Positions 2,175 to 44,463 of a stretch of DNA of 64,000 nucleotides are shown here, piece by piece. Position 1 is the stretch's first letter. Each line of letters starts with the position of its first letter. The notes below the pieces were generated by a model. That model did not search any database. It saw nothing but the letters and a program-made list of their open reading frames with translations, and was not told the origin of the DNA. The stretch is taken from NCBI GenBank assembly GCA_965208835.1, contig OZ242358.1, positions 4,992,001-5,056,000 on the forward strand. Reading direction: 5' to 3'. Source of the DNA: Candidatus Latescibacterota bacterium (GTDB lineage: Bacteria; Latescibacterota; UBA2968; GCA-2709665). The translations under genes were made by a program, and so were the position numbers.

Positions 2175-2346
2175 CTCGTCTCCTCCATCCATGCGTCCAG
2201 GAAACCATCGATCCCAAAAGACCCGATGCCTCCGAATATTCCCTTCAAGGTAGAAGAAACCGCTTCGAAATCCAGGAACTTCCCGTTATTTTCTACGAAG
2301 GCAGGGTCATTCAGAAGCAGCCCGGGACCTTTCCTGCCGGCTCATC

Positions 2347-2486
2347 AAGAGCGGGTAGACGTTAGACGGGAGAGGGTAGAGATTACCCGCCTTGCGAGGA
2401 TTCTTCTCGTGCCAGAGGCAAGAAAGATTAAAATATCGGGCAAGGCCTTCTTCTCCCGTCTCACCTCTACCGACTCACCGCTTTTT
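2347..2486 (+). repeat. Hairpin repeat element, copy 1
   Basis: Heptamer arms (gtagacg/gagaggg ... ccgtctc/cctctac) around core gccttgcgaggattcttctcgtgccagaggcaagaaagattaaaatatcgggcaagg; five more copies in window. Confidence 0.85.
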
Positions 2487-2539
2487 GGCATCGTCTCAAC
2501 CCCACCCTTCAAGATATCATCCAGGAGACCGATAAAACG

Positions 2540-3616
2540 ATGACCAAACCCTTGAGACTCGCGGTTGTGGGCGTGGGCCGAATCGGTGTCTTCCACGCCA
2601 TGCACGTCCAGGAACTGGGCGAAGCGGAGGGTGCCTGCAAGCTCGTTGCCGTGGCAGACCGCTACGGGAACACCGCCGAAGACGTCGCCCGCGATCTCCG
2701 GAAAAAGCAGGGGTCCGAAATCCGCGCCTTCAAGAGTACCCGGGACCTGGCGGATGCCGGCCTGATCGACGCGGCCGTTGTGGCCTCGAGGACCGAAGAC
2801 CACGAAGCCGACGCCCGGACACTGATCGACGCGGGCTGCCGCGTCATGCTGGAGAAACCCCTTACCGGTTCGGTCGAGGCCGCTGCCGACTTCGTGAGAT
2901 ACCTGTCGAGGGATAATACGAAAAAGCAAGCCCTGATGCAGGCCTTTATGAGGCGCTTCGACGAGCCGCTGCTCCATGCGAAATCCCTTCTGGACCGGAA
3001 CGCCATCGGCGACCCGTTCAAGGTCGTTTCCGTCCTCGAAGATCCGCATCCGCCGCCGGTGGGCTACAACAGCCCGGGCATCGTGCCGGACATGGCCGTG
3101 CACAACATCGACGAAGCGATCTGGCTTCTGGGCGCGCTTCCGGAACGGGTTGGCGCCATGGGCGCGAACCTGCACAACTTCAGGATTACGACCGTCAAGG
3201 AGGATTTCGACGACGCGCACCTGCACATGACGTTTCCCGAGGACGTTATCGCGCAGGTCCAGGTTAGCCGAAACCACGTGGCGGGATACCGCAACGAAAC
3301 GTGGGTCTACGGCCCGGACGGTCTCATCCACGTGGGTCCCTTCCAGGAGGATCCGTTACGGGTGACAGTGGAAGCGTACTCCCGGGAGGGCGTCATCGAA
3401 AAGAAGGACTTCCGGATGAGAGATTACGGCGGGGAAGTCCCGGTGTTCATCGAGCGGTTCGGACCGTCGTACAAACGGGAGCTCGCGTATTTCGTCGACC
3501 GCTGCCTGAAAGACGAACCCTTCAGCGTGACTCAGGAGGTCGGCCTCAATGCCATGCGCGTTGCCGAGGCCGGTGTCCGGTCGCTGCGCGCCGGCGCAAA
3601 GACCGTTGCCATTTAA
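2540..3616 (+). CDS. Gfo/Idh/MocA oxidoreductase, inositol 2-dehydrogenase-like
   Basis: GVGRIG Rossmann motif, LEKP, RRFD, DMAVHNID. Confidence 0.88.
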   Translation: MTKPLRLAVVGVGRIGVFHAMHVQELGEAEGACKLVAVADRYGNTAEDVARDLRKKQGSEIRAFKSTRDLADAGLIDAAVVASRTEDHEADARTLIDAGCRVMLEKPLTGSVEAAADFVRYLSRDNTKKQALMQAFMRRFDEPLLHAKSLLDRNAIGDPFKVVSVLEDPHPPPVGYNSPGIVPDMAVHNIDEAIWLLGALPERVGAMGANLHNFRITTVKEDFDDAHLHMTFPEDVIAQVQVSRNHVAGYRNETWVYGPDGLIHVGPFQEDPLRVTVEAYSREGVIEKKDFRMRDYGGEVPVFIERFGPSYKRELAYFVDRCLKDEPFSVTQEVGLNAMRVAEAGVRSLRAGAKTVAI

Positions 3617-3702
3617 ACACACCGGGGAGACGCCGGCCCCGAAAACAAAGGCTTATCCGAGGCGCGAAGGACGTCAACGTACCGCGCTGACCCAACCACG
3701 CC

Positions 3703-4761
3703 TTACGAGAGCGGGAAGTCGACCCGGCAGTTCCCTCCGTGGTGCGACTTCAGAATCCCCATCATCACCTCCACCGTCTTGCGAGCTTCCCGCGCGGGCG
3801 AGACCAGGTCGCCGCCTTCCTCGAGTACCCGGATGAGTTCTCCCACTGCCGCCGTCTGATTTTCCATCGCGTATTTCTCTGCCAGAATGGGAGACGTGGA
3901 CGACTCGTAGTGCGACCTGCTCCGGATCAGGGATGCATTCCGATCGGATATCTCGATGCGTCCATCCTCGCACGTCAGCGCGAATTGCGAACCTGGAAAG
4001 TTCATTTTATGGGCATTGTAGAACGCCCGCACGCCGTTGTCGAACCGGATATACGCCGATGCGTACGGATCGACGGCCGGATCTTTCCCGCCGTCCCCCT
4101 TGTACTCGGTGAAATGCTCGAATCCCTCTTCGAGCTCGGCCGCCAGCCAAAGGGGATTGGCCTCGGCGAAGAAGCAGATCATGTCCAGCAGGTGGGTGCC
4201 GTTCCGGAACATCATCGCCCGGCGGCTGAACTGCTCGCACACAACCGTTCGCAGCGGTCCGATCTCTCCGCTTCGAATAATCTCTCGCGCCTCGAGGTAG
4301 CTCGGATTCCACCGCCTGGTGTGCTCGATCGAGAGCAGTACGCCGTTGGCTTCGGCGGCGGCGATCATCCGGTCCGCGTCTTCCAGCGAGGTGGCGATCG
4401 GCTTCTCGCACAGGATGGCGCGCGCGCCGGATTCGGCGGCGGCAACGGTCATATCCGCGTGTACGTGGTCCGACGTCGCCACGCTCACCAGATCCGGCTT
4501 CTCCTTGTCCAGCATCTCCCGGTAATCGGTATAGAGACGCGCATCCGGCCACACGTCTGCCCACTGTGCCTTGAAATCCGCCAGCGCCTCCGCACGGAGG
4601 TCGCAAACGCCCACCACTTCCGTCTGTGGATGCCGATCGTACGCAGCGGCGTGCGAGCCGGGCATCGGGCCGTACACCGGAAGGCGCTCATCTTCCTCGG
4701 GTCTCCTCGCGCCTATGCCGGACAGGCCGATGATTACGGAACGGTATTCGGGTTTCGACAT
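3703..4761 (-). CDS. Gfo/Idh/MocA oxidoreductase
   Basis: IIGLSGIG, CEKPIA, GTHLLD; start moved to ATG 4761 behind AGGAGG. Confidence 0.88.
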   Translation of the reverse strand: MSKPEYRSVIIGLSGIGARRPEEDERLPVYGPMPGSHAAAYDRHPQTEVVGVCDLRAEALADFKAQWADVWPDARLYTDYREMLDKEKPDLVSVATSDHVHADMTVAAAESGARAILCEKPIATSLEDADRMIAAAEANGVLLSIEHTRRWNPSYLEAREIIRSGEIGPLRTVVCEQFSRRAMMFRNGTHLLDMICFFAEANPLWLAAELEEGFEHFTEYKGDGGKDPAVDPYASAYIRFDNGVRAFYNAHKMNFPGSQFALTCEDGRIEISDRNASLIRSRSHYESSTSPILAEKYAMENQTAAVGELIRVLEEGGDLVSPAREARKTVEVMMGILKSHHGGNCRVDFPLS

Positions 4762-4879
4762 GGACGTATCCTCCTGTTCGCTTCCCTCACGGGGAAGAAA
4801 GAGATCATGCTGCCTTAGAAGCTGCTCTTCTCGCCGATTCCCGTAAAGAACCTCCGAAATCTGTCGAATCAAGGACAAT

Positions 4880-5072
4880 CACTCCCCCCTTGAGGGGGAG
4901 TCGCAGAAGCCGAGCCTGTCCCTGAGCCCGCGGTCCTTGTGCTTGTCGAAGGGCTGTTGTATAGCGGGCATTTCGACAAGCTCAATGACCATGCGTTATT
5001 TAGTTTATTGGATGTCATTAAGCCGCTGTTAGGAGACCCACAACCTGCCCTGAGCCTTGTTGTCCCTGAGCT
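4880..5072. repeat. Cluster of short palindromic REP-like repeats (CTCCCCC..GGGGGAG and TGAGCYTGTCGAA types)
   Basis: ctccccccttgagggggag palindrome; cttgtcgaa...ttcgacaag inverted pair; tcattgagcttgtcgaaatgcccgc recurs inverted near 63567. Confidence 0.7.
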
Positions 5073-5134
5073 TACATCATTCGTCTTCTGGTTTTCTCGT
5101 TTGCTCGTCTATTTGTACTCTCGTCTCTTCGCCC

Positions 5135-6832
5135 TTACGCCTGCTGCCACAGTCCATGGAAATCGGCGTACAGCGCGTGTCGCTCAATCAGCTCTTCGTG
5201 GCTGCCGACGTCGATGCCGCCGCCGTCCATCACCAGCGCCCGACGCGCGCGCCGGGCGGCCGCCATGCGGTGTGCGACGACGATCAGGGTGCGGCCAGGG
5301 GCCATGAACGCCCGCTCCGCGCGCTCCTCCGCGGCGGGATCCAGGTGGCAGGTGGCCTCGTCCAACACGACAATCGGCGACGACGCGAGGTGCGAACGCG
5401 CCAGGGTCACCAGCTGACGTTCCCCCTCGGACAGGCCGGATTTCGTAAGGTTGACTTCCGCGTCCAGCCCGCCCAGCCGATTCAACACACGATCGAGACC
5501 CACGGCCCGGGCGGACGCGGCGATCTCCTCTTCGGTTGCGGACGGCCGCAGGTACACCAGGTTCTCGCGCAGCGATCCGGCGAAGACGTACGCCTCCTGG
5601 GGCACCATCGTAATCAGTCGTGGACGGTCCGGACGCAGAAAGCAGGGCTTCCCGCCGACCGTGATCGCGCCGCTGTCCGGACGCAGCACACCTGCCAGAA
5701 GGGCGGCCAAAGTGGACTTGCCGATCCCGCTGGGCCCGACGATGGCCAGATGGTCTCCTGCGCGGAGATCCAGCGAAAATCTCTCGACGATCGGCTCCCC
5801 GGCGCCGTATGCAAACGTCAAGTCGCGTACGGCCAGATCAGTCGGTTCATCCGACGGTGGCGACGCAGTCGGAACAGCTCCGACCAGGTCCTCCGCCTTC
5901 CCGCCAGTTTCCATCAGGCGCGCATGGTGGACCCGCAACGTGACCAGTTTGGACAGACCGTACGTCACGAACGCCGTCGCCGCCGTCAAACCCGCGAGCA
6001 GGTAAGTAAACGACCCGACCACCTCGCCCGCGCTGAGCAGATCGTTGCGAACCAGGTACGGAACGAAGCCCAGCGCCGTCAGGGCGGGAAACGTGGTGGC
6101 GACGGCGTTCACAACTCCGAATCCGACAGCCTGATGCTTGTATTGCCTGAGTGTCGCCCCGACGGACCGGTTGATCCGATCTTCCACGCGGTCCATGGCG
6201 AAGCCCTTCGCGCCTGCCGCCACCAAGTCCCGCACCGACTGGAGCGCGCGCGTCGTTTCGCCGTGGGTATCCTCATCGGCGAGCATGGACGCCGTTTCGT
6301 TGCGGACTTTGGCGCGGACAACCACAACCTGAAGAAACGCAGCCACGATGAGCCAGGGCAAAGCCAGGACCAGAAGCGTCCACGACAACGTCGCGAGCCC
6401 GGCCGCGGATCCGATGGCGAAAAGGCCGCTCGGGCCCAGACGCAGAAAGTGCGCCAGCACCTCTACAAGCGCCGGAACGTGCCGTGTGAGCTCCGCGCCG
6501 GAACGCAGGACCCGGTCCGAATGCACCGCATCTCCCAGTGTGTGCAGAACGGTGTCGCAGGTCAGGTCCACCTGCACCCTCGAAGTGAGTTTCGCCGTCC
6601 AGTGCGAGAGACGCAACAGCGACCAGACGCCGACCGCGCCCGCGGCGAGAAGCCCGCCGATCCACGCCAGGGCCGCTGAAAGGTCGCCCTCGCGCGCCGT
6701 ATCGATGGCGCTGGCGATGAGGCGTCCGGAGAGCGCCGGCGCGAGTGTCACGCCCACGCTGCACACGCCGATACGAAACAGGCATCCGCGGTGCCTCGAC
6801 ACGTAGCCGTATAGCGATCGGATGGGCGTCAC
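5135..6832 (-). CDS. ABC exporter (TMD+NBD), RamB/AmfA-like
   Basis: GPSGIGKST, LSEGERQ, LDEATCHLDPAAEERAERAF, VVAHR; overlaps upstream partner by 4 nt. Confidence 0.85.
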   Translation of the reverse strand: MTPIRSLYGYVSRHRGCLFRIGVCSVGVTLAPALSGRLIASAIDTAREGDLSAALAWIGGLLAAGAVGVWSLLRLSHWTAKLTSRVQVDLTCDTVLHTLGDAVHSDRVLRSGAELTRHVPALVEVLAHFLRLGPSGLFAIGSAAGLATLSWTLLVLALPWLIVAAFLQVVVVRAKVRNETASMLADEDTHGETTRALQSVRDLVAAGAKGFAMDRVEDRINRSVGATLRQYKHQAVGFGVVNAVATTFPALTALGFVPYLVRNDLLSAGEVVGSFTYLLAGLTAATAFVTYGLSKLVTLRVHHARLMETGGKAEDLVGAVPTASPPSDEPTDLAVRDLTFAYGAGEPIVERFSLDLRAGDHLAIVGPSGIGKSTLAALLAGVLRPDSGAITVGGKPCFLRPDRPRLITMVPQEAYVFAGSLRENLVYLRPSATEEEIAASARAVGLDRVLNRLGGLDAEVNLTKSGLSEGERQLVTLARSHLASSPIVVLDEATCHLDPAAEERAERAFMAPGRTLIVVAHRMAAARRARRALVMDGGGIDVGSHEELIERHALYADFHGLWQQA

Positions 6833-8589
6833 GCAGCCACCTCCTCACCCGGGTCGCCCATAAACGCGGCCCGGTAATCGGCGTCCCGCCATAGTTCGGC
6901 GTGAGGCGCAAGGCGCCGGACTTCGCCTTTGTAAAGCCAGGCCACGAGGTCGGCGGCGGCGGCGGTACTCGCCCGGTGGGCAATGACGACAGTCGTCCGC
7001 GACCTCCCAAGCCTCCGCAATGCCGCAAGGACCCGCGCCTCGGTGGCCACGTCCAGACTGCTGAGCGCGTCGTCCAGAATCAGGATGGGCGTAGCCCTGA
7101 GCGCTGCCCGCGCGAGCCCCAGCCGCTGGTGTTCGCCGCCTGACATCGGGGCCTCGTAAAGGGGTGAATCGTAACCCTTCGGCAGACGTTCGATGAACGC
7201 GTTCGCTTCGACCTGCCTCGCGGCCGTCCGGACGGCCTCATCCGTGACTGCAGCGCCCATCGCGATGACGTCGCGAACCGTGTCGCCGACGAGCGCGGGC
7301 CTCTCGAATGCGTAGCCCACCCGGCGAGAGAGTACGTCGCGCGGCAGTTCGCTAACCGGTGTACCGTCGATGCGGACGACGCCCAGATCCGGGTCCTGAA
7401 GCCGGCCGATCAGTCCGGCGAGCGTGGTCTTGCCGACGCCTGATCTGCCAACCAGGGCGACCGTCGTTCCCGCGGGAATAAGGAGGTCCACGCGCCGGAG
7501 GATATCCCTTTCCGGCCCGCCGAGGGTAACGCCTTCGATCCGGACCTCGCCCGGCCCCCCCGGGTCGGATGCGTCCGATCCGGGCTCGGCCACAGCGGGC
7601 GGAGATTGAAGAACGTCGAGTACCCGGGCCGCATGGGCGCGAAAGGTGGCGATCTGGAACCAGCCGTTGTCGAATATACCGGCGACGCTTGCGTAAGTCA
7701 TCTGCGCATAACGTATGGCGGCCAACAGCGCGCCCACGGACAGGCTGCCCGACGCCAACAGAAGCACTCCGGTAACGGCGGTGATGGTCAAAACGACGTG
7801 ATTGGCGCTGGTCACCAACACGGCGCCGCGTCCGAAGTTCTCCATGATTTCGCGCGTCTTGTCGGCCAGTGCCGGCAACGGAATCGTGATGCGCTCGACC
7901 TCCCGTTCGAGGGTACCGGCTGCGCGTATGGTGCGCCTTCCGGAAAGGGCGCCCGTGTAAGCGTTGACCATCCGGCTGTTCAGTTCGTCGAATCCGGTCT
8001 GTCCGGCCGTAAGCGCGCCCCACAGGCGGCGCATGAGTACGGTCACGGCGCCGACGCCCGCGAGCGCAACCGCTACAAACGCCCAGTGTACGTAAAACAG
8101 CGCGGCGAGACTGCCCGCGCCCGTGAAGAACCCCGTGCCGATCCTCAGCAGGGTCTCCGGGTAGCGCGGCAGGTACGTCGCCTCGGAGCGGATCCGGTTC
8201 TGCAGGTCCCCGTCGTCGAACGCCCGCCTGCCGGGAAGGCCGAGGTCCAGCGCATGATCGACCATTCCGCGCGTCAGCCGCCTTTCGATCGGGGCGCGGA
8301 ATCTTGCCCTCACGGGTTCCGCGACGATTTCGATAAACACCGATGCGAGCATTGCGACCGCCAGCCCCTGGAATCCCCAGCCAATTCGCCCATTCACCGC
8401 CTCGTCTATGGCAACAGCCGCAAAAGCCGGCGCGGCCAGACCCGCGCCGATGGAAAACACGCTGAAAACGGCGTCGAGGGCGAACCAGTGCCACGCCCCG
8501 CGGGCGTATGGGCGCAGAAACGCCATTACCTCACGGATATTGGGAAGTTGGGGACAGTCGGATTTGGAAACTTCGTTACGGGCGGTCAC
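6829..8589 (-). CDS. ABC exporter (TMD+NBD), RamA/AmfB-like
   Basis: GRSGVGKTT, MSGGEHQR, ILDDALSSLD (degenerate Walker B), C-terminus ADLVAWL...HAELWRDADYRAAF. Confidence 0.85.
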   Translation of the reverse strand: MTARNEVSKSDCPQLPNIREVMAFLRPYARGAWHWFALDAVFSVFSIGAGLAAPAFAAVAIDEAVNGRIGWGFQGLAVAMLASVFIEIVAEPVRARFRAPIERRLTRGMVDHALDLGLPGRRAFDDGDLQNRIRSEATYLPRYPETLLRIGTGFFTGAGSLAALFYVHWAFVAVALAGVGAVTVLMRRLWGALTAGQTGFDELNSRMVNAYTGALSGRRTIRAAGTLEREVERITIPLPALADKTREIMENFGRGAVLVTSANHVVLTITAVTGVLLLASGSLSVGALLAAIRYAQMTYASVAGIFDNGWFQIATFRAHAARVLDVLQSPPAVAEPGSDASDPGGPGEVRIEGVTLGGPERDILRRVDLLIPAGTTVALVGRSGVGKTTLAGLIGRLQDPDLGVVRIDGTPVSELPRDVLSRRVGYAFERPALVGDTVRDVIAMGAAVTDEAVRTAARQVEANAFIERLPKGYDSPLYEAPMSGGEHQRLGLARAALRATPILILDDALSSLDVATEARVLAALRRLGRSRTTVVIAHRASTAAAADLVAWLYKGEVRRLAPHAELWRDADYRAAFMGDPGEEVAA

Positions 8590-8645
8590 AGACTATACCT
8601 TTCACTTCAACTTTTTCTTCTTTCTTTTTGTTTTTTTTATTTTAC

Positions 8646-8811
8646 GTCCTTTTTCTTATGCGCAGAAAAAGGACCAAAAAGAACCGCGCCCCTCGGCGGG
8701 GGGCCGGTTTTTCCGTGAATCACCTCAGTGACCACAATGAAATTCGGGTGGCCTACAACCCCGTCAGCTGTTCCAATACAACACTGCTGGACGGACTAAC
8801 ACGGAAAAACC
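8646..8811 (-). promoter_or_regulatory. Putative structured leader upstream of the ABC exporter pair
   Basis: Perfect 11-bp inverted repeat 8646-8656/8664-8674; perfect 12-bp inverted repeat 8706-8717/8800-8811 enclosing a further hairpin at 8761-8794. Confidence 0.35.
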
Positions 8812-8844
8812 CCCCACACCACCGGACGCGCCGTATTTACATTT

Positions 8845-8869
8845 GTAGGGGCACCCCTTGTGGGTGCCC
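8845..8869 (+). repeat. GTAG-type REP palindrome
   Basis: gtaggggcaccccttgtgggtgccc: GTAG followed by a gggcaccc/gggtgccc stem. Confidence 0.7.
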
Positions 8870-8977
8870 AGATAATGGCGCAGACATCCGTGAGTCGATA
8901 TCGCCAGACCGTATCGTAGACCTGCTTTAGCTGACGGCTGATAGCTGACAGCTCTTTCCAAGGGGAGAGTTCTGCAT

Positions 8978-10141
8978 TCAATACAAATGAATCGACCCGT
9001 CCGGACCTACATAGCGACGCGGGGGCAGCGCCTGATACGGCCGCGACTTCATCAATTCCATATCCAACTCGACCCCAAGCCCCGGTCGCCGGCCCAGTTC
9101 CTCCACATCCACGCAACCGCCCGAGAGCGGCACTCCCATCGTCTGCACGTCGTCGAACCACGGGCACAGCCGGCAGTGCTCCAGGATCTCGAAATTCTGC
9201 ATCGCGGCCGCCGCGTGCGCAGCAGCAGCCAGAGCAACGGGGCCGTAGGGATTGTGCGGCGCGATCCCGATCCCGTACACCTCCGCGAAATGGGCGATCT
9301 TCATCAGTTCGCTGATCCCGCCGGCGTGGCAGAAATCCACCTGGCACACGTCAACCGCCTGTTTTTCGAACCACTCCCGGCAATCCCACCGCGTGATCCA
9401 CCGCTCGCCCGCGGCAATCCGCATTCCCGGAAAGTCGCGTTTTAACCTCACGTACGGCTCAACCGTACTCTGCTCGATCGGCTCTTCCACGAAAAAGAGG
9501 TCCAGCGGCAGCAATTCCCGCATCAGGCGGTGCGCCGCCCGGGGCGAGAACACGCCGCCGCAGTCGATCATCAGCGCGACGTCCGGCCCCATCGCCTGTC
9601 GCAGCCGGGTCATCTCCCGGACGGCGACGTCCACCTGGGCGTCCATATCGAACGGCGCAACCGCGGGTCCGTGCCCGTGCTTGAACGCATCGAACCCCTC
9701 CTCCAGGGCCTGTGCCGCGTGCGCCTCCAGCGAATCCAGGCCCAGGTCCGCCCGCGCGTAACACCGCACCCTGTCGCGGACCCTTCCGCCCAGCAACCTG
9801 AATACGGGCTGTCCGGTGGCCTTGCCCACAACATCCCACAGCGCCATGTCGATTCCGCTCACCGCGCTCGTATGAACGACGCCCCGCTTCCACCAGAAGT
9901 CCCGGTACCCCAGCTGCCAGACGTGCTCCACGTCCATTGGATTCATACCCTGCAGCCTGGGTTTCAGGGACGTCTCCACCTGCGCCGCCACGGCCATTTC
10001 GTGGTGCTCCGTTGTGGCCTCGCCGATCCCGGTGATGCCGGCATCCGTCTCCACCTCCACGAATACCCAGTTCCGTCTGGGTGTCCGCCCGTCCGCCGCG
10101 GGCACGTTCATGACGTGCGCCCTGATGTCGGCGATCTTCAT
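8978..10141 (-). CDS. Mandelate racemase/enolase superfamily, galactonate dehydratase-like
   Basis: RNWVFVEVETDAGITGIGEA, SGIDMALWD, FVEEP, AAGER, APHNPYGP. Confidence 0.88.
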   Translation of the reverse strand: MKIADIRAHVMNVPAADGRTPRRNWVFVEVETDAGITGIGEATTEHHEMAVAAQVETSLKPRLQGMNPMDVEHVWQLGYRDFWWKRGVVHTSAVSGIDMALWDVVGKATGQPVFRLLGGRVRDRVRCYARADLGLDSLEAHAAQALEEGFDAFKHGHGPAVAPFDMDAQVDVAVREMTRLRQAMGPDVALMIDCGGVFSPRAAHRLMRELLPLDLFFVEEPIEQSTVEPYVRLKRDFPGMRIAAGERWITRWDCREWFEKQAVDVCQVDFCHAGGISELMKIAHFAEVYGIGIAPHNPYGPVALAAAAHAAAAMQNFEILEHCRLCPWFDDVQTMGVPLSGGCVDVEELGRRPGLGVELDMELMKSRPYQALPPRRYVGPDGSIHLY

Positions 10142-29207: not shown

Positions 29208-29864
29208 ATGCTGAGATTCCCCGAAGAACTCATGCTTCTCATACTCGACGACGAGAACGGGAGATTCGCACGCGTGCCGGATCAGTCCCTGCGCTATGCG
29301 CTGGCGGGCGGGGTGCTGATGGACCTGGCGATGGAGAACCGCATTGACACCGATCCGGACCGGCTGGTCCTGGTGGATTCGACCCCGGTTCAGGACAGCC
29401 TTCTCGATCCCACGCTTGCCGACATTTCGCAGGCTGACGAAACCCACGATGCGCGCTTCTGGGTGGAACGCACCGCCATTCGCAGCGCCGCCGGCATTCG
29501 GGAAGCGTCTCTTGACCGGCTGGTTGAAAAGGGCATCCTCGAACGCCGGGACGACCGGTTTCTGTGGGTCTTCCGGTCACGGCGTTACCCCGCCGTGGAC
29601 GACCAGGCCGAGCGGGAAGTCAAGCTCAGGATAATGGAGATCCTGTTCAGCGACGAGATCCCCGACCCTCGCGACGTGGTGATCATCAGCCTTGCGCACG
29701 CCTGCAATCTCTTCAGCCAGATTCTGTCTGCCAGAGAACTGGCGCGCGTGGCCCCCCGCATCAACCAGGTGAGAAAACTCGATCTGATCGGACAGGCGAC
29801 GTTTCGGGCGATCACGGAAATCGAACTCTCGCTCGCCCTCGCGGTTCAGATGCGTCCGTATTAA
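29208..29864 (+). CDS. GPP34/GOLPH3 family protein
   Basis: EELMLLILDDENG, ALAGGVLMDLAMENRI, LVEKGIL..FLWVF..RRYP pattern. Confidence 0.78.
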   Translation: MLRFPEELMLLILDDENGRFARVPDQSLRYALAGGVLMDLAMENRIDTDPDRLVLVDSTPVQDSLLDPTLADISQADETHDARFWVERTAIRSAAGIREASLDRLVEKGILERRDDRFLWVFRSRRYPAVDDQAEREVKLRIMEILFSDEIPDPRDVVIISLAHACNLFSQILSARELARVAPRINQVRKLDLIGQATFRAITEIELSLALAVQMRPY

Positions 29865-31653: not shown

Positions 31654-32427
31654 TTACATTCGCCAGACCACCAGCATCTGCGCGGTCATTTCGTCTTCAT
31701 CGGTTCCGAGCTTGTTGCGCCAATATTGGAACTCTACGCCGACCATGAACTGGCTGGCTTCGCCCGCCATCGCTTTTCCCACGTCCCACACCAGTTGCGG
31801 CTGCGCAAGGACAGACCCGTTTACGTCATCTCCGAACTCGTTGGTACGACCGCCTATGTATTCGGCGTGCCCCGTGAACGTGAACGACTGCTCGCCGGCT
31901 TCGATGGGCAGCAGCCAGCTGACGTCGAACATGAAGCTGTTACCCGTCTTCGGCGCCCCGCCGCCGTCCACGCCGGTGTTGTCGTCAATATAGGCCGTCA
32001 GGTCCGTGTTCAGAAACAGGAATCCCGGCACGCTCCAGGAGGTCCGCACGCCCGGCAGGTATTTCATTACCTTGGCGTCGCCCCCCGCGTTGAAGCCGGC
32101 GACCAGGGCGAAGTCCCGAATGGGACCCACGCGCACTTCTTTTCTCGACAGTTTGCCGAAGCTCAATGTCGGATACCACTCGGAATAGAAGTCCCTGTCG
32201 TTGAAGCCGTCGCTGCCGCTGTCGTCGATGTAATCCAGAAAAAAGAAACTGTCGCCCAGTTTCCATCTGGACGCGTTCTGCACGGTAAACACGAGCGTCC
32301 ATTCGTCGGTCCCTGAGAATGGATTCAGGTGTGAACCGTATTGAAGGTGAAACTCGGTCTGCGCGATCGCGGAGGTCCTCGCGGTAAGCAGCAGAACAAC
32401 CAAAATTCCGGTGTATGCCTTTTTCAT
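31654..32427 (-). CDS. Tsx-like nucleoside-specific outer-membrane channel
   Basis: Signal peptide, WKLGDSFFFLD, QPQLVWD, GVEFQYWRNKLG; next to the nucleobase permease. Confidence 0.78.
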   Translation of the reverse strand: MKKAYTGILVVLLLTARTSAIAQTEFHLQYGSHLNPFSGTDEWTLVFTVQNASRWKLGDSFFFLDYIDDSGSDGFNDRDFYSEWYPTLSFGKLSRKEVRVGPIRDFALVAGFNAGGDAKVMKYLPGVRTSWSVPGFLFLNTDLTAYIDDNTGVDGGGAPKTGNSFMFDVSWLLPIEAGEQSFTFTGHAEYIGGRTNEFGDDVNGSVLAQPQLVWDVGKAMAGEASQFMVGVEFQYWRNKLGTDEDEMTAQMLVVWRM

Positions 32428-32616
32428 AACGAAATCTCGTTGCGTTATTGGATCTGCAATTTGCCGGGATTGCTGATCGGAGTGGGTTTATTGCGATCGC
32501 CAACTTTGTCGGAAGCCTTGCCAGCCACAATTGCTCGATAACGGTTTGGTGAAACAATGCAGCCGGACGAAAGACGTCTAATGGTAGACCCGTAATGACA
32601 ACATTGCAGATTCGGA

Positions 32617-33720
32617 CTATTCCCTTATTGTCCAAAGGTCAAACTCATCCTGAGGTGTTGTTTTGCTACGAGAAAAGCTATCTGCCTGCCGGCGGCCTTC
32701 ACGTGCCGATCCCGCTGCGACACGAGTCTGTATTCGCCACCCTGAGTCACGGAGCGAAAGTTGTAATATCTCAAAGGGATCAGCACGGCGGTCGTTAATG
32801 CCCCCGAACCGGATTACGAGACGGGCATCCGATACCGCTTTTTTTGCACAATTGCTCCACACTCGGTGAAGGTCTGCGGCGAATATCTCAGGACTGCTAT
32901 GTTTTAGCTGACCCGTCTGGCAATAGTCTACTGAATCAGCCCCTCCCAAGAACCATAGTCTTAGCCATTGGTCTGGCATGTAGGTGCGCATTCCGTAGTA
33001 GGGTGGCGACGTAATGAACCAATGCACGTCTTCTGACACACCAATGAAGGCCCTGGATCTTCGGGCGTCGCCAAGCCACACGTTTCCGATGCTTGTCTGC
33101 AACTCCGAACTAAAGAAACGGGTCGCTCGTCTTAAAACGAGCTTCCTAATGTCTACGCAAGGTGGACATAGCCCTCTTGATTCCCAGAATCTCACTGCGT
33201 AAGCCGGCTTTGGCGCATACGTCCGCGGCGATTGGTTCGAAAAATGTGAAGGAACCGTCGGTGTTAATGGGCCATGGAGTGCCCCAAGAATGATGGCCCT
33301 TAATGCATTCTTAGGTGCCGTGTCGCATCTATCAAGGAATGCCTCGCGCAATACGCAAAGTGTCTTCAAGACGGACTCATGGTATGCAAGTTCCCAGAAA
33401 CGGGTATTGGGGACGTTTCGAGGCTTGGTTTCTTTTGACAGACACATATTCAGTTCGTCCATAATCTCGTCCGGAGTCACTGACAGGAGTTTCGCATGTG
33501 AAATTGCAACGGCAAGGGGATGGCTATCGATTCCCTGTGTCGGTAGTCCAAGCAGGCGCGCAGCTAGATTTGTAGTACCACGCCCACAGAAGGGGTCAAG
33601 CACCCATTGTCCAGGAATAGCTCGTCTTTGAAGAACAGACAGGGGAAACCGGATTGGAAACATCGTGAAGTACGGACAGATCCCATTTAACATTCCCTTG
33701 CGGTCCGCAGTCGATGACAT
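32617..33720 (-). CDS. DNA amino-methyltransferase (N4-C type motif)
   Basis: PYFTMFP, VLDPFCGRGTT (SAM binding), ITSPPY (catalytic); ATG overlaps the HerA stop (TAATG). Confidence 0.88.
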   Translation of the reverse strand: MSSTADRKGMLNGICPYFTMFPIRFPLSVLQRRAIPGQWVLDPFCGRGTTNLAARLLGLPTQGIDSHPLAVAISHAKLLSVTPDEIMDELNMCLSKETKPRNVPNTRFWELAYHESVLKTLCVLREAFLDRCDTAPKNALRAIILGALHGPLTPTVPSHFSNQSPRTYAPKPAYAVRFWESRGLCPPCVDIRKLVLRRATRFFSSELQTSIGNVWLGDARRSRAFIGVSEDVHWFITSPPYYGMRTYMPDQWLRLWFLGGADSVDYCQTGQLKHSSPEIFAADLHRVWSNCAKKAVSDARLVIRFGGINDRRADPFEILQLSLRDSGWRIQTRVAAGSAREGRRQADSFSRSKTTPQDEFDLWTIRE

Positions 33721-35807
33721 TATGCGGCATCTCCCGCTTTCACCCAAGTTGCGTTCGATGACGAACTCTTGTAGGTATGCCAGCCATCCGGACGTTCGCT
33801 GAATGTTTCGTCAAGAGCCTTGGGTACAAGACGATAGGCGATATCATCACGATTATCCAATTCGTCAGGCAAGATCTCACGAAAAAATGCATTTAACATC
33901 CCCCACGGCGCACCTTTTGTGCTCACACGTTCCTTTAGATCGCTCTGCGAAAATTCCAGAATCGCACGGGCTTCGAGCTGTCTTAACACATCTAAAGGAG
34001 GCGTTTCATCGTCGTCCTTGGTTACGTCTTCTTTGTCGTCAGCGGAATCATTGCCGCGACCCGCTAGTCCAGCGAACTGTCTCCGCAGTGCTTCAGCGTA
34101 CGTTGGTGCTGCCGGCTTATTGTATTCCGGATCACGGAGATTATGAATTGCTTCGAATGACACAACTCGAATCGGAACCGGGTACGGCTTACCCTCCACA
34201 GAACTCCAAAATACGCCCTGTCCAGGAATGGGTTCGTTCAATAGTACGCTTAGCAAGTCATCACTGAAATGAGCGTTAGCCCGGCGTACATTCCCGAGGT
34301 CTCCGCCCGAAAGCAGATGAAAGATGAACCAATTATCACCTTGGCTTAGAATCTCATTCGGGATACTTCCGGGCTGTTGGGTTACCAGAACAGTGCCAAG
34401 GTCGTACTTCCTGCCCTCCTTGACCCACGCGATATAAGGCTCTGCTGCTGTACCGGACTCATTTAGAACTGCTTGGGCCTCTTCAACGACAGCGATTGTC
34501 GGGATAGTCTTGGGATCGGCGGAGGTGAACTCTTCCTGATTCCTATCAAAGATACGACGCAGTATGAGACCCGATAGAATCAGTGCCTGCCCACCTCGAA
34601 GCTGGGACAGGTCGATCACACAAAGTCTCCCGTCTGCAAGAGCTGCCATCAGCATGTCCATCAGCTGGCTGGATGGGTCGTGAAGCATTCGCACAATTGT
34701 AGTCGCGTTGGCCCTAGCTGCCAACGCCTCAACCTCTTGTCTGTCGTCTAACTGTAGAAGCTCCACAATGTCTTGCAAAGGAGCGTCATTACCATCCTTA
34801 TGAATGAGATCCACGAGTCGTTCCCACCGATCAGCATTTAGTGCACGTAACTTTCTAACATTTTGCTGATCTTGACGTTCTGGGGATAATGCGATTCCGA
34901 TGACATCTGCGGGGCGTAAGCGTCGAATATCCAGTTTGATGCCGCCTGCGACGAATGACTGATAAAACGAACTGGGGCTTCTTCTTGGAGTAAATACCAC
35001 AAGTTTGTCTTCAAGTCCTTCAACGTCACAAAGCCCTGGCCGCCCCTTGTCATCAGGCCAGAAATATTCACCATCTGGATCAAAGAGAATGGTTCCCACG
35101 GGAACACGCCGTCCCTGTCGCTTTTCGACTGTTGGAATGCTATCGTACAATCGGCTGAACAGGAGTTTGTTTAGATTGGACTTGCCGAAACCGGCACGAG
35201 CGAATATAAGAGTTCGTCGTGAAACCAGACTTCCAAGTGCGAACCGAACCTCTACTTCTTCGTCCTGTAATTGCATCCATGACTCTGCATCTTCTCGGCA
35301 CGGTCCGTATATGTATTCCCCCATGGCCAGATGCCCTATCAAGGCTCCATTCACATTGTGGCCTGAGATCTCCCTAAGAACGTCGCCGGATGGAAACGCT
35401 ACCGGACTCCCAACGTGGGGAAGCCTACGATGCGAGGGAACAAATGTCAGCCCGTCTTCATTGCGTCGGAGAACGCCAAGCACACGAATGTTGACCCTGT
35501 ATTTTAAATAATCCTCTCGAAGATTCTCCGGTACAGCGCGGTCCTCGCGAACTGCTCTGATGTTGAATTCTTCGCCACTGCCACTCGCCAATTTTCCCTC
35601 GGACGAAAGGGAAGTAATTCTCCCTAGCACCGCTTCCTCAGGCGATTCGAGCTGTACGAGGACGAATTGCCCGTGCATAGGCGTGCTCTGAAAGTCACTT
35701 CGATATGGTAGGGCGAGATCAGCGTGAAATTCTAGCCCGCCTTCTCGGAATCCCCGAAATACTCCAATGACGTGGTGACGAGGAAAAAGCGTTAAATCGG
35801 CGGCCAT
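33720..35807 (-). CDS. herA: HerA/FtsK-family ATPase with N-terminal HAS-barrel-like region
   Basis: Walker A ARAGFGKSN, LFDPDGEY, Walker B AVVEEAQ, KEGRKYDLGTVLVTQQP. Confidence 0.88.
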   Translation of the reverse strand: MAADLTLFPRHHVIGVFRGFREGGLEFHADLALPYRSDFQSTPMHGQFVLVQLESPEEAVLGRITSLSSEGKLASGSGEEFNIRAVREDRAVPENLREDYLKYRVNIRVLGVLRRNEDGLTFVPSHRRLPHVGSPVAFPSGDVLREISGHNVNGALIGHLAMGEYIYGPCREDAESWMQLQDEEVEVRFALGSLVSRRTLIFARAGFGKSNLNKLLFSRLYDSIPTVEKRQGRRVPVGTILFDPDGEYFWPDDKGRPGLCDVEGLEDKLVVFTPRRSPSSFYQSFVAGGIKLDIRRLRPADVIGIALSPERQDQQNVRKLRALNADRWERLVDLIHKDGNDAPLQDIVELLQLDDRQEVEALAARANATTIVRMLHDPSSQLMDMLMAALADGRLCVIDLSQLRGGQALILSGLILRRIFDRNQEEFTSADPKTIPTIAVVEEAQAVLNESGTAAEPYIAWVKEGRKYDLGTVLVTQQPGSIPNEILSQGDNWFIFHLLSGGDLGNVRRANAHFSDDLLSVLLNEPIPGQGVFWSSVEGKPYPVPIRVVSFEAIHNLRDPEYNKPAAPTYAEALRRQFAGLAGRGNDSADDKEDVTKDDDETPPLDVLRQLEARAILEFSQSDLKERVSTKGAPWGMLNAFFREILPDELDNRDDIAYRLVPKALDETFSERPDGWHTYKSSSSNATWVKAGDAA

Positions 35808-35816
35808 GTTTTCTCC

Positions 35817-36962
35817 TTAGTACCTGCGTCCAGAAGTGTCAACATCCTGAAATTGGAACGCATCCAATGTTGTAGCTTCTCCAGCCAATACATCTCTAAG
35901 CCCAGAAAGGACCTGATCTTGAAGAACATCGAAATCAAAGTCGACGAGGGCAGCGTTTTCGTGAGCCCTTTGAAGGCAGCGCGGATAGAAGGGAATTGGG
36001 AACCCATCGACCGAGTCGGCGAGCAGACAACCAAGGATTACTTGAGCCTGTGCCCGCTGTGGTAGAAAAATGTCCACTGGCCATATTGGATCACTTGGGC
36101 GGCTACCGAATTTTACAAGGTGCATCTTACCACCTACGAATTTGTTGATTTCCCCACCGGGAATCTCCTCGTCGTCGCCCCTTGCATATTCAGACCAAAC
36201 ATAGGCGGCCTCTTCAAGTGGTTGCGGAACTGCGAGGTATGCAGGGTACTCTGTGGTTAGGACCCTCTCCAGTGCCATTGCCAAACGGTATCGGTCAAGC
36301 ACCTTACTGTGTTTCGCTAAACCCACAAGAAAGATGCGGCGCCGATTCTCATTCCACTCTTGAGCTATCGCTTCCTCTAATTGTTTCAAGAACTTTCGAA
36401 ACAAATCTTGGGCAAAGACCTTGCTTCGTAGCAGGCCGTCGCAGACGATCATCGTGTCGGTGCCAAAGTCCTTGTCCCGAATCACGGTCAGCAAAACTGC
36501 CCATTCCATAAGCTCACGATACACTTGTACCCAACTGGGACTAGTAGGGCGATCTTCGTCATTTAGTCGAATCATGTGGCTAAGTTTTGTGAGGTCAGTA
36601 CCTACATCTAATGCGTCCATGAGTTTGCCTACAGGAGTAAATGGCTTGCCTGATTTATCGAATTGCGTTGTTCCAAGGAGTCGGACGCTAGTGGACGGCG
36701 TTATCGCTTCGAGACAATATTCATTGTTGCTGGAATCCACTACACGAACAAGCTGAATTAGAAAAGGATCGAATTGAACACGGTTATTTCCTCCATCCGT
36801 ACCAACGAGTGATATGGAGGTGGTTTCGCGAGCCTGAATTCGACGTACCTGTGTACGGAGTGGTCTAACCTCTGCACGCAACTTCTGAAGAAGCTGGTAG
36901 TCATCTTGTATACGATTATGAATCTCTCTTCGCAGGAGGCTATGGCTGGCTGGATCTATCAT
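35817..36962 (-). CDS. nurA: NurA-like nuclease (RNase H fold)
   Basis: VGTDGG, IVCDGLL, VGLAKHS, FYPRCLQRAHENA match the NurA motif order; 9 nt upstream of herA. Confidence 0.72.
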   Translation of the reverse strand: MIDPASHSLLRREIHNRIQDDYQLLQKLRAEVRPLRTQVRRIQARETTSISLVGTDGGNNRVQFDPFLIQLVRVVDSSNNEYCLEAITPSTSVRLLGTTQFDKSGKPFTPVGKLMDALDVGTDLTKLSHMIRLNDEDRPTSPSWVQVYRELMEWAVLLTVIRDKDFGTDTMIVCDGLLRSKVFAQDLFRKFLKQLEEAIAQEWNENRRRIFLVGLAKHSKVLDRYRLAMALERVLTTEYPAYLAVPQPLEEAAYVWSEYARGDDEEIPGGEINKFVGGKMHLVKFGSRPSDPIWPVDIFLPQRAQAQVILGCLLADSVDGFPIPFYPRCLQRAHENAALVDFDFDVLQDQVLSGLRDVLAGEATTLDAFQFQDVDTSGRRY

Positions 36963-37043
36963 GGCGCCTCGTGAGATTTTGGTTGTATATTATGTAAAGT
37001 GCTGCATTGGGCACAAACTCGAACCTACGAAATAGGAGACGAT

Positions 37044-37814
37044 ATGCTTGGTATCGAACCGACGATCTTGATACTCATTGTGTGTATTGCGATGTATGCG
37101 TGTTGTGAATCGGAAGATTCGCTATCCCATTCGGATAAGGCCGCGTGGGGGTACGGCGCCGATAACGGGCCCGACGTGTGGGGTCGGCTCAGCCCGAACT
37201 ATGCGCTCTGCGCCACAGGGTCGCGCCAATCACCCATTGACCTCCGAAACCCCAGCTCGGCAAGCCTGCCGTCCATCACAATCAACTACCTGCCTACGCC
37301 CCTTAATATCCACAATAACGGCCATACCATAGAAGTTGCTTCCACCGACGAAAACTGGATAGAGGTTGGCGGCGAGAGATACAGCCTGCTGCAGTTCCAT
37401 TTCCACGCGCCATCCGAACATACGGTGGAAGGCAGGTCGTTCGACATGGAAATGCATCTCGTTCACCGCAACGGCGAGGGTGCGTTGGCCGTCATCGGCG
37501 TTCTCATCGAGCGCGGAAGCCGACACATCGCATTCGATCCCGTCTGGGCGCATTTGCCGCAAACGCCTGGTGAAATGAAACGCATCGAAGGCGTCACGGT
37601 CAACTCCGGTGACCTGCTGCCGCGTGACACGCGTACCTACAGGTATGACGGCTCGCTGACAACCCCGCCCTGTTCCGAGGACGTGAAATGGCTCGTGATG
37701 GCGACGCCCGTTGAACTCTCAGAGGCGCAGATTGCCGCATTCAAAGCTATCGTCAACAAGAATAACCGGCCGGTACAGGCGTTGAACGGCCGCGAGATTC
37801 TCACGGATATCTGA
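37044..37814 (+). CDS. Alpha-class carbonic anhydrase, exported
   Basis: QSPID, QFHFHAPSEH, EMHLVH, YDGSLTTPPCSE, NNRPVQ. Confidence 0.95.
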   Translation: MLGIEPTILILIVCIAMYACCESEDSLSHSDKAAWGYGADNGPDVWGRLSPNYALCATGSRQSPIDLRNPSSASLPSITINYLPTPLNIHNNGHTIEVASTDENWIEVGGERYSLLQFHFHAPSEHTVEGRSFDMEMHLVHRNGEGALAVIGVLIERGSRHIAFDPVWAHLPQTPGEMKRIEGVTVNSGDLLPRDTRTYRYDGSLTTPPCSEDVKWLVMATPVELSEAQIAAFKAIVNKNNRPVQALNGREILTDI

Positions 37815-42935: not shown

Positions 42936-43169
42936 CTAGGATTCGGCGGGTTCTTCCGCACCGTCGCCGTTTTGCGCGCGGATGCGTTCCACGAATGACC
43001 TGCCCTTGTTGACGGCTTTGTCCACGTTGCGTCGAACGGTCTGGCGGGTTTCGGTACCGCTCCGGGGCGCCAGCAGAACGCCGGCGATTATCCCCAGAGC
43101 CATCCCGATGATGGCGCCGAGACCGAAAACGCCCAGGCAAAACCCCATGTTATTCATCTCACGATCCAC
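42936..43169 (-). CDS. YtxH-domain small membrane protein
   Basis: GAIIGMALGIIAGVLLAPRSGTETR. Confidence 0.82.
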   Translation of the reverse strand: MDREMNNMGFCLGVFGLGAIIGMALGIIAGVLLAPRSGTETRQTVRRNVDKAVNKGRSFVERIRAQNGDGAEEPAES

Positions 43170-43362
43170 CGAAGCCTCCTGGTCAGTTGGTTGTCCTCAT
43201 TGAGATTCTCGCAGGAATCCCTAATTTATAATGCAAATTATCAGATTAGTCAATGTATTTGGTTGAATCTGCCCCGAAACGGCGCGCATAATCCCCAAGC
43301 ACATATAATCTCTGACGAACTTCCGCACCCGCCCTGCCGAAGGCGTCGCGACACATTCTCCT

Positions 43363-44463
43363 TCAATAATCCCACGGAATCCGATACGGGTGCGTGAATC
43401 CTTCGGGTTCCCGCAGTACGATTTCATAGGCGGTGAGGATTTGCGTCCGTACACCCGGATAGGCGCCCCGGTCCGGCGGGCCCACCCCCATCACCAGCGC
43501 CTCCGGCATCTCGAACGCCGCCCGGAAACCCAGCGTCTTCAACACCTCCGTCTTCGTCGTTTTGCCCGGCGTGTCCAACGTGCGCAGACGGCAGAACCCC
43601 ATGTCCGCGGCCGACTTCAGGATACCGTCGAACAACGCGCGGCACCGGTCCAGGCGCCAGGAACCCCGGTACAGATACATATCCATCAGCCCGATATGGG
43701 CCTCGTGCCGGTTGTCCCATCGCGTAGTCCGCCACGGCGCCAGCGTTGAGAACCCGATCAACTTCGATCCGGAAAACAATCCGAGCATCCGTACGTGCCG
43801 CGCCTCGGAACGCCCCTCCGACAGCTTCGGAATCTCCACCAGAATCTGGCCCTCGTGCAGCTGATCGTCCGCAAACAGCGTCAGCAGATAACTCTTCACC
43901 GGAACGTCAGGGTCCACCGCGGAGTTCAGCAGGACCTGAATCTCGTTCAGATGGCTGAAATCGAGGGGCCGCACCTCCAGCGGGTCGGAATCTTCAATAC
44001 GGAAGTACGCATCCAGGTATTCCTGTATACTCGCGCCGCCGTAGTCCAAACCCAGCCATTCCGGATGGTCTTTCACCACGTCCCGAAACCCGCACTTTTC
44101 ATATACCCGGTGTGCGATGCTCGGGCCGGTGTCGATGAACATCGCCTCGGCGCCCGTCTCTCTCACCGCGTCGATGCACAGCTTCAGCAGCCTCCCGCCC
44201 AGCCCCTTCCGCTTGTGTTCGTCGGCAAACATCCCATAGTGTCCCAGCCGCCCCCAGGGACTGTGCCGGGACGTTAGCGTCCACCCCTCTCCCACGATCT
44301 CGCCGTTGAGATCCGCCACAAACCGCCGGATATTTTCAAAATACCCGTACGGATTGATTCCGCACAGTGTGAACGGCACCTCGGTATCACTCTGGATTTC
44401 TCTGAACCCCTGTTCGCGGATCGCATAGTCATCCACCTGTTCGATGATTCCGGGTTTAGACAT
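43363..44463 (-). CDS. GNAT-family acetyltransferase (probably two domains)
   Basis: HKRKGLGGRLL, AHRVYEKCGF; second region LKTLGF. Confidence 0.75.
   Translation of the reverse strand: MSKPGIIEQVDDYAIREQGFREIQSDTEVPFTLCGINPYGYFENIRRFVADLNGEIVGEGWTLTSRHSPWGRLGHYGMFADEHKRKGLGGRLLKLCIDAVRETGAEAMFIDTGPSIAHRVYEKCGFRDVVKDHPEWLGLDYGGASIQEYLDAYFRIEDSDPLEVRPLDFSHLNEIQVLLNSAVDPDVPVKSYLLTLFADDQLHEGQILVEIPKLSEGRSEARHVRMLGLFSGSKLIGFSTLAPWRTTRWDNRHEAHIGLMDMYLYRGSWRLDRCRALFDGILKSAADMGFCRLRTLDTPGKTTKTEVLKTLGFRAAFEMPEALVMGVGPPDRGAYPGVRTQILTAYEIVLREPEGFTHPYRIPWDY

Follow-up and report, generated by a model that had tools for sequence, protein, structure and literature searches.

A three-gene cassette in the genome of a Candidatus Latescibacterota bacterium (assembly GCA_965208835.1, contig OZ242358.1) combines a HerA-like ATPase and a NurA-like nuclease, for both of which the closest solved relatives are restriction proteins of the TdpABC system, with a DNA methyltransferase. 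It extends on the minus strand from position 36962 to 32617 of the stretch of 64,000 nucleotides that was analysed (contig positions 4,992,001 to 5,056,000, called the window below). With moderate confidence, the cassette is interpreted as a self-contained, horizontally moving defence system resembling restriction-modification (R-M) systems and built on a TdpAB-type motor-nuclease pair. In such a system the methyltransferase, a circularly permuted member of PF01555, would methylate the host DNA. The HerA-like protein would assemble as a hexameric ring and draw double-stranded DNA through it at the expense of ATP, and the ring would feed this DNA to a docked dimer of the NurA-like protein, by which unmarked DNA would be degraded. 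That the pair forms a complex, that it degrades DNA, and that the modification protects against it, we infer by analogy with TdpABC. The order of the genes, their homology and fold, the intactness of the catalytic motifs, the conserved linkage to the methylase, and the insertion and patchy distribution of the cassette come from the analysis itself.

The three open reading frames (ORFs) are tightly coupled. The nuclease gene (gene 1) and the ATPase gene (gene 2) are separated by 9 nucleotides (nt), GGAGAAAAC, while the stop codon of gene 2 and the start codon of the methyltransferase gene (gene 3) share the sequence TAATG, a 1-nt overlap. If counted from a TTG start codon, the ORF of gene 3 reaches position 33747.

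The three proteins of the cassette

The product of gene 1 was assigned to no family in Pfam, NCBIfam or PADLOC, and NurA (PF09376) was not matched even at an E value of 0.1. Matches to baeRF_family3 (0.07) and NDT_II-A (0.0072) were dismissed as noise. A precomputed PF09376 assignment was present on 1 of the 120 homologues listed. A profile made from 42 diverse homologues led to one convincing solved protein, TdpB (8wet_G, E 1.6e-12). The AlphaFold2 model of the gene 1 product has a predicted local distance difference test (pLDDT) score of 91.8, and a Foldseek search with this model again gave TdpB as the best match (E 6e-11, template modelling scores 0.60/0.63, 17% identity), followed by the NurA structures 2ygk, 9x1m, 3taz and 7f6d from Sulfolobus, Thermococcus, Pyrococcus and Deinococcus. 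By profile and predicted fold, the protein is a member of the NurA superfamily that is nearest to TdpB. Four positions stand out in the 42 homologues as putative metal-binding residues: D56, in a DGG motif kept in 39 of them; E153, kept in 41; D175, in a DGLL motif present in 33, with Glu in 8 others; and H334, kept in 33. The TdpABC system of thermophiles is the one of PDB entries 8wet, 8wfd and 8y1k and of An et al. (Nat Chem Biol 2025).

Gene 2 encodes a protein that matches the DUF87/HerA family of Pfam at an E value of 2.7e-21. Its best match among the 7 found in the PDB with phmmer was TdpA (8wet_A, 4.5e-21), and HerA of Sulfolobus (4d2i) was matched at 8e-11. A Foldseek search with the predicted model placed TdpA chains at the top, then archaeal HerA, and then the HerA proteins of the SIR2 and DUF4297 systems. 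The Walker A (GFGKSN) and Walker B (VVEEA) sequences are present together with the GRK and TQQP motifs, and in 38 HerA sequences the residues G206, G208, K209, S210, E442, E443, R466, K467 and T476-Q-Q-P are invariant. A match to mad8 of PADLOC (1e-10) was limited to the P-loop region and no other mad genes were seen, so that an assignment to MADS was rejected.

The alignment of the gene 2 product to TdpA and to classical HerA proteins stops near residue 554 of 695. The remaining C-terminal extension, which is absent from TdpA, consists of an acidic disordered linker (residues 584-606) followed by a compact, helix-rich domain (607-691) that ends in a beta hairpin. In the AlphaFold2 model, blocks within residues 610-690 have pLDDT values of 89-95, the linker falls below 50, and the small domain is made up of four helices and the hairpin. 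The extension is kept in the main clade of relatives with 60-67% identity (67% over residues 3-691) and is present whether the partner gene encodes a methylase, a TmtA-like protein or WYL/HsdM proteins. In the clade that is associated with DruA, the HerA protein has 681 residues and its BLASTP alignment to the window protein ends at residue 555, the extension not being alignable. Residue W676 in the extension is invariant among the 38 HerA sequences, and the domain is net acidic (12 Lys and Arg versus 14 Asp and Glu). Searching the Protein Atlas with the C-terminal part gave no usable match. As read from the predicted model, the order of secondary structure elements in the domain resembles that of a winged helix. 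A complex of the methyltransferase with HerA residues 556-695 was predicted with a score of 0.00, and no verdict was given. This clade-specific domain is a candidate sensor of the methyl mark.

The product of gene 3 matches N6_N4_Mtase of Pfam (1.1e-10), the match covering just the C-terminal, S-adenosylmethionine (AdoMet)-binding part of the model, and the MTase_II model of PADLOC (3e-17). Both motifs by which beta-class enzymes of PF01555 are recognised, the AdoMet-binding motif I and the catalytic (S/D/N)PP(Y/F) motif IV, are present: the former (DPFCGRGTT) lies near the N-terminus and the latter (SPPY) near residue 238. All of 34 orthologues share DPFxGRGTT and SPPY without change. The protein is considered to be circularly permuted because its halves align to the beta-class enzyme 2zie in swapped order, the N-terminal motif I with the C-terminus of the template and the SPPY region with its N-terminus. 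The SPPY sequence suggests N4-cytosine methylation.

A preliminary description of the locus had reported the tight coupling of the three genes, the intactness of the catalytic motifs and the C-terminal extension of HerA. All of these were confirmed, with the motifs proving to be conserved among the homologues of all three proteins. Its name for gene 1, NurA, holds for the fold, as judged by profile and structural comparison, and was not returned by Pfam, NCBIfam or PADLOC.

Conservation of the triad and its insertion site

In a locus survey, 191 stretches with relatives of the gene 1 product were obtained from species-representative genomes, and 80 loci were kept. They span Chloroflexota, Cyanobacteria, Pseudomonadota, Verrucomicrobiota, Bacteroidota, Nitrospirota, Acidobacteriota, Planctomycetota, Deinococcota and others, at identities of about 57-70%, and across many phyla the triad recurs with about 60-65% identity. 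More than 3,324 relatives of the gene 1 product are present in a large protein collection, as counted among the best 7,999 candidates scored, and 414 clusters at 50% identity were found in a representative library. A HerA gene follows directly after the nuclease gene in 78 of the 80 loci; the other two are cases of a contig end and a deletion. The third gene could be judged in 70 loci, the other 10 ending too early, and a methyltransferase gene like gene 3 was present in 60 of these, in 57 cases directly adjacent to the pair. Fifty of the adjacent genes lie downstream on the same strand, 4 downstream in inverted orientation and 3 upstream. That the linkage is kept despite such rearrangement argues for a function. 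Conservation of the linkage was one of the tests by which, according to the preliminary description, the proposal could fail, and the proposal passes it. No further gene recurs across the loci, and the cassette consists of three genes throughout.

At the site in the window, the cassette is an insertion/deletion difference, an insert of about 4.4 kb. The Tsx-like gene on one side of it was found in 12 of 14 congeners, in none of which the cassette lies beside it; in 8 of the 12, the Tsx-like and carbonic anhydrase genes are no more than about 170 bp apart. The carbonic anhydrase gene is a short remnant in three congeners (L105, L106 and L113) and is missing from another (L112). The intergenic site seems to be prone to rearrangement. 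Of 41 related genomes, counting G000, 6 gave any match to the cassette. Two genomes from other genera of the same family hold a copy at the same site. The copy in G019 is 86% identical and is interrupted by a contig end. That in G016 (L072, 8001-9313, and L082; 84% and 74% identity) has decayed between the carbonic anhydrase and Tsx-like genes: a single deletion fuses NurA residue 275 to about residue 196-205 of the methyltransferase, with HerA wholly gone.

The GC content of the cassette is 0.507, compared with 0.616 and 0.578 in the 5-kb flanks, and at third codon positions (GC3) it is 0.46-0.50 in the cassette genes versus 0.68-0.78 in four flanking genes. The higher AT content claimed in the preliminary description was thus found again. 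Of the two neighbours it had named, one encodes an alpha carbonic anhydrase and the Tsx-like gene is a match below the cut-off of its family (Table 1). Its statement that mre11, rad50 and an endonuclease gene are missing agrees with a scan of ORFs that covered roughly 5 kb of each flank and not the rest of the window or of the genome. The cassette is patchily distributed, and we regard it as fairly probable that it moves horizontally.

Table 1 Features of the cassette and its insertion site (positions in the window)
Feature	Position	Strand	Remarks
Gene 1 (P0001), NurA-superfamily (TdpB-like) nuclease	35817..36962	minus	381 amino acids; profile and AlphaFold2 fold match
Gene 2 (P0002), HerA/FtsK-type hexameric ATPase, TdpA-like	33720..35807	minus	695 amino acids; Pfam DUF87/HerA
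HerA C-terminal extension, residues 556-695	33723..34142	minus	AlphaFold2 model and alignments
Gene 3 (P0003), circularly permuted PF01555 (N6_N4) DNA methyltransferase	32617..33720	minus	367 amino acids from ATG
Inserted segment	32428..36998	.	Between Tsx-like and carbonic anhydrase genes
Tsx-like gene	31654-32427	minus	Weak match, 24.4 bits versus Pfam cut-off 27.2
Alpha carbonic anhydrase gene	36999-37814	plus	Flanks the cassette

The flanking genes encode the weakly matching Tsx-like porin, a xanthine/uracil permease, the alpha carbonic anhydrase, a major facilitator superfamily transporter and a periplasmic binding protein. A scan of positions 32300-37300 for promoters and terminators gave 5 and 3 counts, the level obtained with shuffled sequence, with no site upstream of gene 1. 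Sequencing runs are listed for four cassette holders from one study, and none of these is on record as RNA. An imperfect direct repeat of 15 nt (positions 32483-32497 and 37079-37093, 13 of 15 matching) flanks the cassette at a distance of about 120-135 bp on each side; it may be left over from the insertion or be due to chance and is too weak for an attachment site to be called. Elsewhere in the window, between the genes for a sulfate permease and a xanthine permease, a bacterial homologue of GPP34/GOLPH3 is encoded on the plus strand (29208-29864; Pfam PF05719, E 6.4e-48). GPP34/GOLPH3 is a eukaryotic family of Golgi phosphoproteins.

Arguments for and against a restriction-modification function

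The preliminary description had proposed that the methylase marks self and that the nuclease and motor destroy unmarked DNA. By analogy with Tdp, this defence reading gains support from the fact that both core proteins are nearest to TdpA and TdpB, taken together with the linkage to the methylase in 60 of 70 loci. It is also supported by the catalytic residues of the three proteins, which are invariant or nearly so, by the insertion of the cassette with its foreign GC3 at a site where 12 of 12 congeners lack it, and by the deletion in G016, in which the end of NurA, the whole of HerA and the start of the methyltransferase were removed together. The surroundings of the loci point in the same direction. 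The nearest ORF of at least 200 amino acids on each side was picked in loci L002-L063, and 91 of the 123 picked ORFs were scanned. Sorted by Pfam name, 24 of the 91 were of restriction or defence type (HsdM, GmrSD, ResIII/SNF2, MrcB+HNH, NACHT+Mrr, TIR, SIR2, AbiEi, WYL, DUF3223 and Sacsin/NOV_C) and 17 of mobile-element type (integrases, serine recombinases, transposases, RepB, DUF4400, a phage tail protein and a group II intron reverse transcriptase), about 20 belonged to metabolism and about 25 had no match; lacking a matched control set, and with several loci sharing one island, the survey is supportive and not quantitative.

Several observations, besides this limit of the survey, weigh against an R-M function. 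The cassette in the window is surrounded by genes for transport and metabolism and not by a defence island, a model of the NurA-like protein is missing from PADLOC-DB 2.0 so that no call of a named system supports the reading, and for this clade the evidence consists of homology, predicted fold and genomic context. In pairwise comparisons of 46 complete triads, the identities of NurA and HerA were correlated with a Spearman coefficient of 0.95, while those of NurA and the methyltransferase gave 0.44, which was reached in 0 of 500 permutations and is only moderate. The median identities were 68% for NurA, 68% for HerA and 53% for the methyltransferase. Judged from these identities, the NurA-HerA pair is one unit with which the methylase travels more loosely. 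A methyltransferase like gene 3 is missing from 10 of the 70 informative loci, and in a paralogous clade with 35-39% identity the pair is accompanied by DruA. In some settings, therefore, the pair works without this methylase.

The loci without the methylase are of several kinds. In four of them from Burkholderiales (L006, L010, L011 and L022, at about 4400-7900), a GHKL (Sacsin) + NOV_C protein of 1,084-1,152 amino acids is encoded directly upstream. That of L011 matches TmtA (Tiamat) of PADLOC at 4.8e-67, and the TmtA-like gene is perhaps a partner or perhaps a neighbouring system. Beyond it, in L006, L010 and L011, a UvrD + PD-(D/E)XK helicase-nuclease gene was observed. A DUF3223/HamC-like protein takes the third position in three or four of the loci, among them L009 (5359-6105), L015 (3549-4295) and L020 (7073-7819), where it is encoded next after HerA; in L009 its gene starts 55 bp after HerA and the protein matches the Hachiman-associated HamC of PADLOC at 1.7e-83. 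A WYL gene lies upstream in L009, L013 and L020, and L013 also carries two HsdM genes. Nothing recognisable replaces the methyltransferase in L059, and L067 has decayed. In the paralogous clade the order is DruA, NurA-like, HerA, as seen in the congener G002 and in G027 of another genus (L086), with DruA (DUF4338; PADLOC DruA, 1.4e-123) directly upstream of the pair. The triad of G002 (L085, G002:C1:1684000-1700000, 5714-10113) is an insert of its own, 4.4 kb long and some 6 kb away from the insertion site of the window. It lies between two genes that are neighbours about 290 bp apart in the window, where its empty counterpart lies at about 43080-43366.

Such variation of the third partner, which includes DruA, DUF3223/HamC-like and perhaps TmtA-like proteins, would be expected if the cassette served in defence without R-M logic. 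The NurA-HerA pair would then be a generic DNA-destroying effector and the third gene an interchangeable sensor, a regulator or an independent neighbour. The methylase could in that case serve in, for instance, target recognition within the complex or epigenetic control, or it could shield the element from other R-M systems. The loose coupling of methyltransferase divergence to the NurA-HerA core agrees with this explanation, as does the dispensability of the methylase in the Thermus system discussed below. The majority pattern is, however, that of a DNA-modifying enzyme beside the pair, as in Tdp, and the motifs of the methylase are invariant, while some of the alternative partners may be adjacent systems in one island that has spread among related Burkholderiales. 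We consider this explanation unlikely.

An operon with the same gene order has been studied experimentally in the integrative and conjugative element (ICE) ICEth1 of Thermus thermophilus HB27. According to Blesa et al. (PLoS Genet 2017, PMC5365140), it encodes Tth111II, a NurA-like protein of 377 amino acids, TdtA (568 amino acids) and a PF01555 methylase (410 amino acids), with junctions of 4, 2 and -4 bp, and is co-transcribed. The same paper reports that a knockout of tdtA abolishes DNA donation, that a knockout of the nurA-like gene lowers it by 4-5 logs, and lists a knockout of the methylase as a viable strain. Loss of the methylase has only minor effects on transfer according to a further paper (PMC7767461). 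Two of these points add to those against an R-M function: a dispensable methylase is not what strict R-M logic predicts, and the role reported for the operon is DNA donation and not defence.

The ICEth1 operon and the cassette share the order and families of their genes and a tight coupling, a likeness that is drawn from descriptions and not from sequence. The junctions between the NurA-like, TdtA and methylase genes are 2 and -4 bp in the former, compared with the 9-nt gap and 1-nt overlap in the window. The ICEth1 operon is part of an ICE of 14 kb that carries an integrase and an upstream type IIG enzyme, both of which the window lacks, and TdtA, at 568 amino acids, does not have the C-terminal extension of the window protein. 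A search of Thermaceae representatives for the operon of HB27 itself gave Tdp-type loci and other HerA genes and did not recover the operon. In two of these genomes (L099, about 6194-8450, and L100, about 1574-3828), HerA-like genes coding for about 700 amino acids follow a gene that weakly matches the motif I region of the methyltransferase; no NurA-like gene was detected there by profile. As the architecture is the same, the triad has a precedent in print. The claim of the preliminary description that the cassette is undescribed and that no NurA-HerA-methyltransferase system has been characterised was thus too strong, with the principle being set by Tdp and the gene order by the operon of ICEth1.

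By extension from ICEth1, the cassette could be an engine for DNA export or processing that belongs to a mobile element, in which HerA would pump DNA out, NurA would process it and the methylase would be a passenger. The donation phenotypes of the co-transcribed Thermus operon favour this, as do the integrases, recombinases, RepB or DUF4400 genes that adjoin many loci. Against it, the window has no integrase, tRNA, type IIG enzyme or transfer genes, and in all its occurrences the cassette is limited to three genes. Among solved proteins, the restriction pair TdpAB is the nearest to it, and the transjugation phenotype could be a by-product of a DNA-fragmenting nuclease-motor. An export function, although the main rival reading in view of the Thermus operon, is held to be quite improbable.

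If the cassette is indeed an R-M-like defence system, there would be a widespread restriction family in which the killing part is a HerA-NurA ring machine under the control of ordinary base methylation. The Tdp principle, so far tied to an uncommon sulfur modification of thermophiles, would also hold in mesophiles from many phyla, a large set of annotations as hypothetical protein would be explained, and the DNA-donation phenotype of Thermus could be reconciled with defence. Through its variation (methylase, DruA or DUF3223/HamC-like), the third gene would make it possible to study how a single effector chassis comes to be connected to different sensors. More speculatively, and less likely than not in our view, the TdpAB-like NurA-HerA pair may be a general DNA-shredding chassis that has been coupled repeatedly to phosphorothioation (TdpC), base methylation, DruA and DUF3223/HamC-like modules. 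The methylase clade, in at least a dozen phyla, would then be a new class of ATP-dependent R-M systems in which the ring translocase, perhaps by means of its C-terminal domain, reads methylation in place of a sequence-specific endonuclease, and Thermus transjugation would be a side effect.

Relation to known systems

The end-resection complex of archaea and Deinococcus has, by fold, the architecture of a HerA ring with a NurA dimer in common with the cassette. The family and fold of the two proteins could thus indicate a module for double-strand-break repair. Unlike this repair module, the cassette is patchy, horizontally transferred and linked to a methylase, and often also to defence or mobile genes; it has no mre11 or rad50 gene within about 5 kb and no match to NurA of Pfam. 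It is missing at the site in 12 of 12 congeners and from most relatives, its GC3 is foreign, and its proteins are nearer to TdpAB than to HerA-NurA of repair, all of which makes a repair function very improbable. In a 2026 mBio paper on archaeal HerA-NurA, a role in defence is still a suggestion. A 2026 review assigns bacterial NurA-HerA to defence and calls distant NurA-like sequences of bacteria uncharacterised. No named NurA-HerA-methylase defence system was found in the literature searched, subscription papers and bioRxiv supplements being outside reach.

The SIR2-HerA (Nezha) and DUF4297-HerA systems share with the cassette the combination of a HerA-family ATPase and an effector, which is NurA-like in the window and not SIR2 or DUF4297. 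The antiphage-HerA models of PADLOC and NCBIfam match the gene 2 product at 57-63 bits, far from the NCBIfam cut-off of 800. Neither of the two systems is known to carry a methylase.

In type I and type III R-M systems, a methylase is likewise genetically coupled to a nuclease and to a DNA translocase that runs on ATP. In the window, the motor is a ring of the HerA/FtsK type instead of a superfamily 2 (SF2) helicase, the nuclease has the RNase-H-like fold of NurA instead of PD-(D/E)XK, and there is no specificity subunit. The sequence-specific endonuclease gene of type II R-M systems has no counterpart, as no PD-(D/E)XK or HNH match to Pfam was obtained in the cassette.

The closest likeness is to TdpABC, in which a HerA-like ATPase and a NurA-like nuclease are found side by side with one DNA-modifying enzyme. 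One paper describes tdp as the third phosphorothioate (PT) R-M system, from extremophiles, with tdpC alone being needed for the modification (PMC12914056), and TdpABC is listed among PT-based R-M systems in Table 1 of another (PMC13223576). TdpAB is the restriction half of TdpABC. The sulfur mark reportedly blocks the action of TdpAB on self DNA. Loci of this type were seen in Thermaceae: in L093, L095 and L096, a PAPS_reduct gene is followed by a NurA-like ORF without Pfam match and then by a HerA-like ORF, and the same layout was found by ORFs in L094 and by tblastn in L097. The PAPS_reduct protein of L093 matches DndC of PADLOC at 4.9e-48. In these loci the same motor-nuclease pair is thus tied to an enzyme that modifies DNA by another chemistry, and compared with their order the window presents this pair with a methylase replacing the sulfur enzyme.

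The cassette has homologues of TdpA and TdpB. Its third gene encodes a PF01555 methyltransferase and not the PAPS-reductase/DndC-like TdpC by which the system is defined. The modification gene is upstream in the Tdp-type loci and downstream in the window, the HerA protein of the window is only about 25% identical to a TdpA-like protein from Thermaceae, and its C-terminal extension of 140 residues is not found on TdpA. The version with a methylase is a variation on a principle that Tdp established with a different modification, and the Tdp paper itself may bear on its novelty. By the absence of TdpC the cassette is not a member of the Tdp family, yet by analogy it plausibly works like Tdp.

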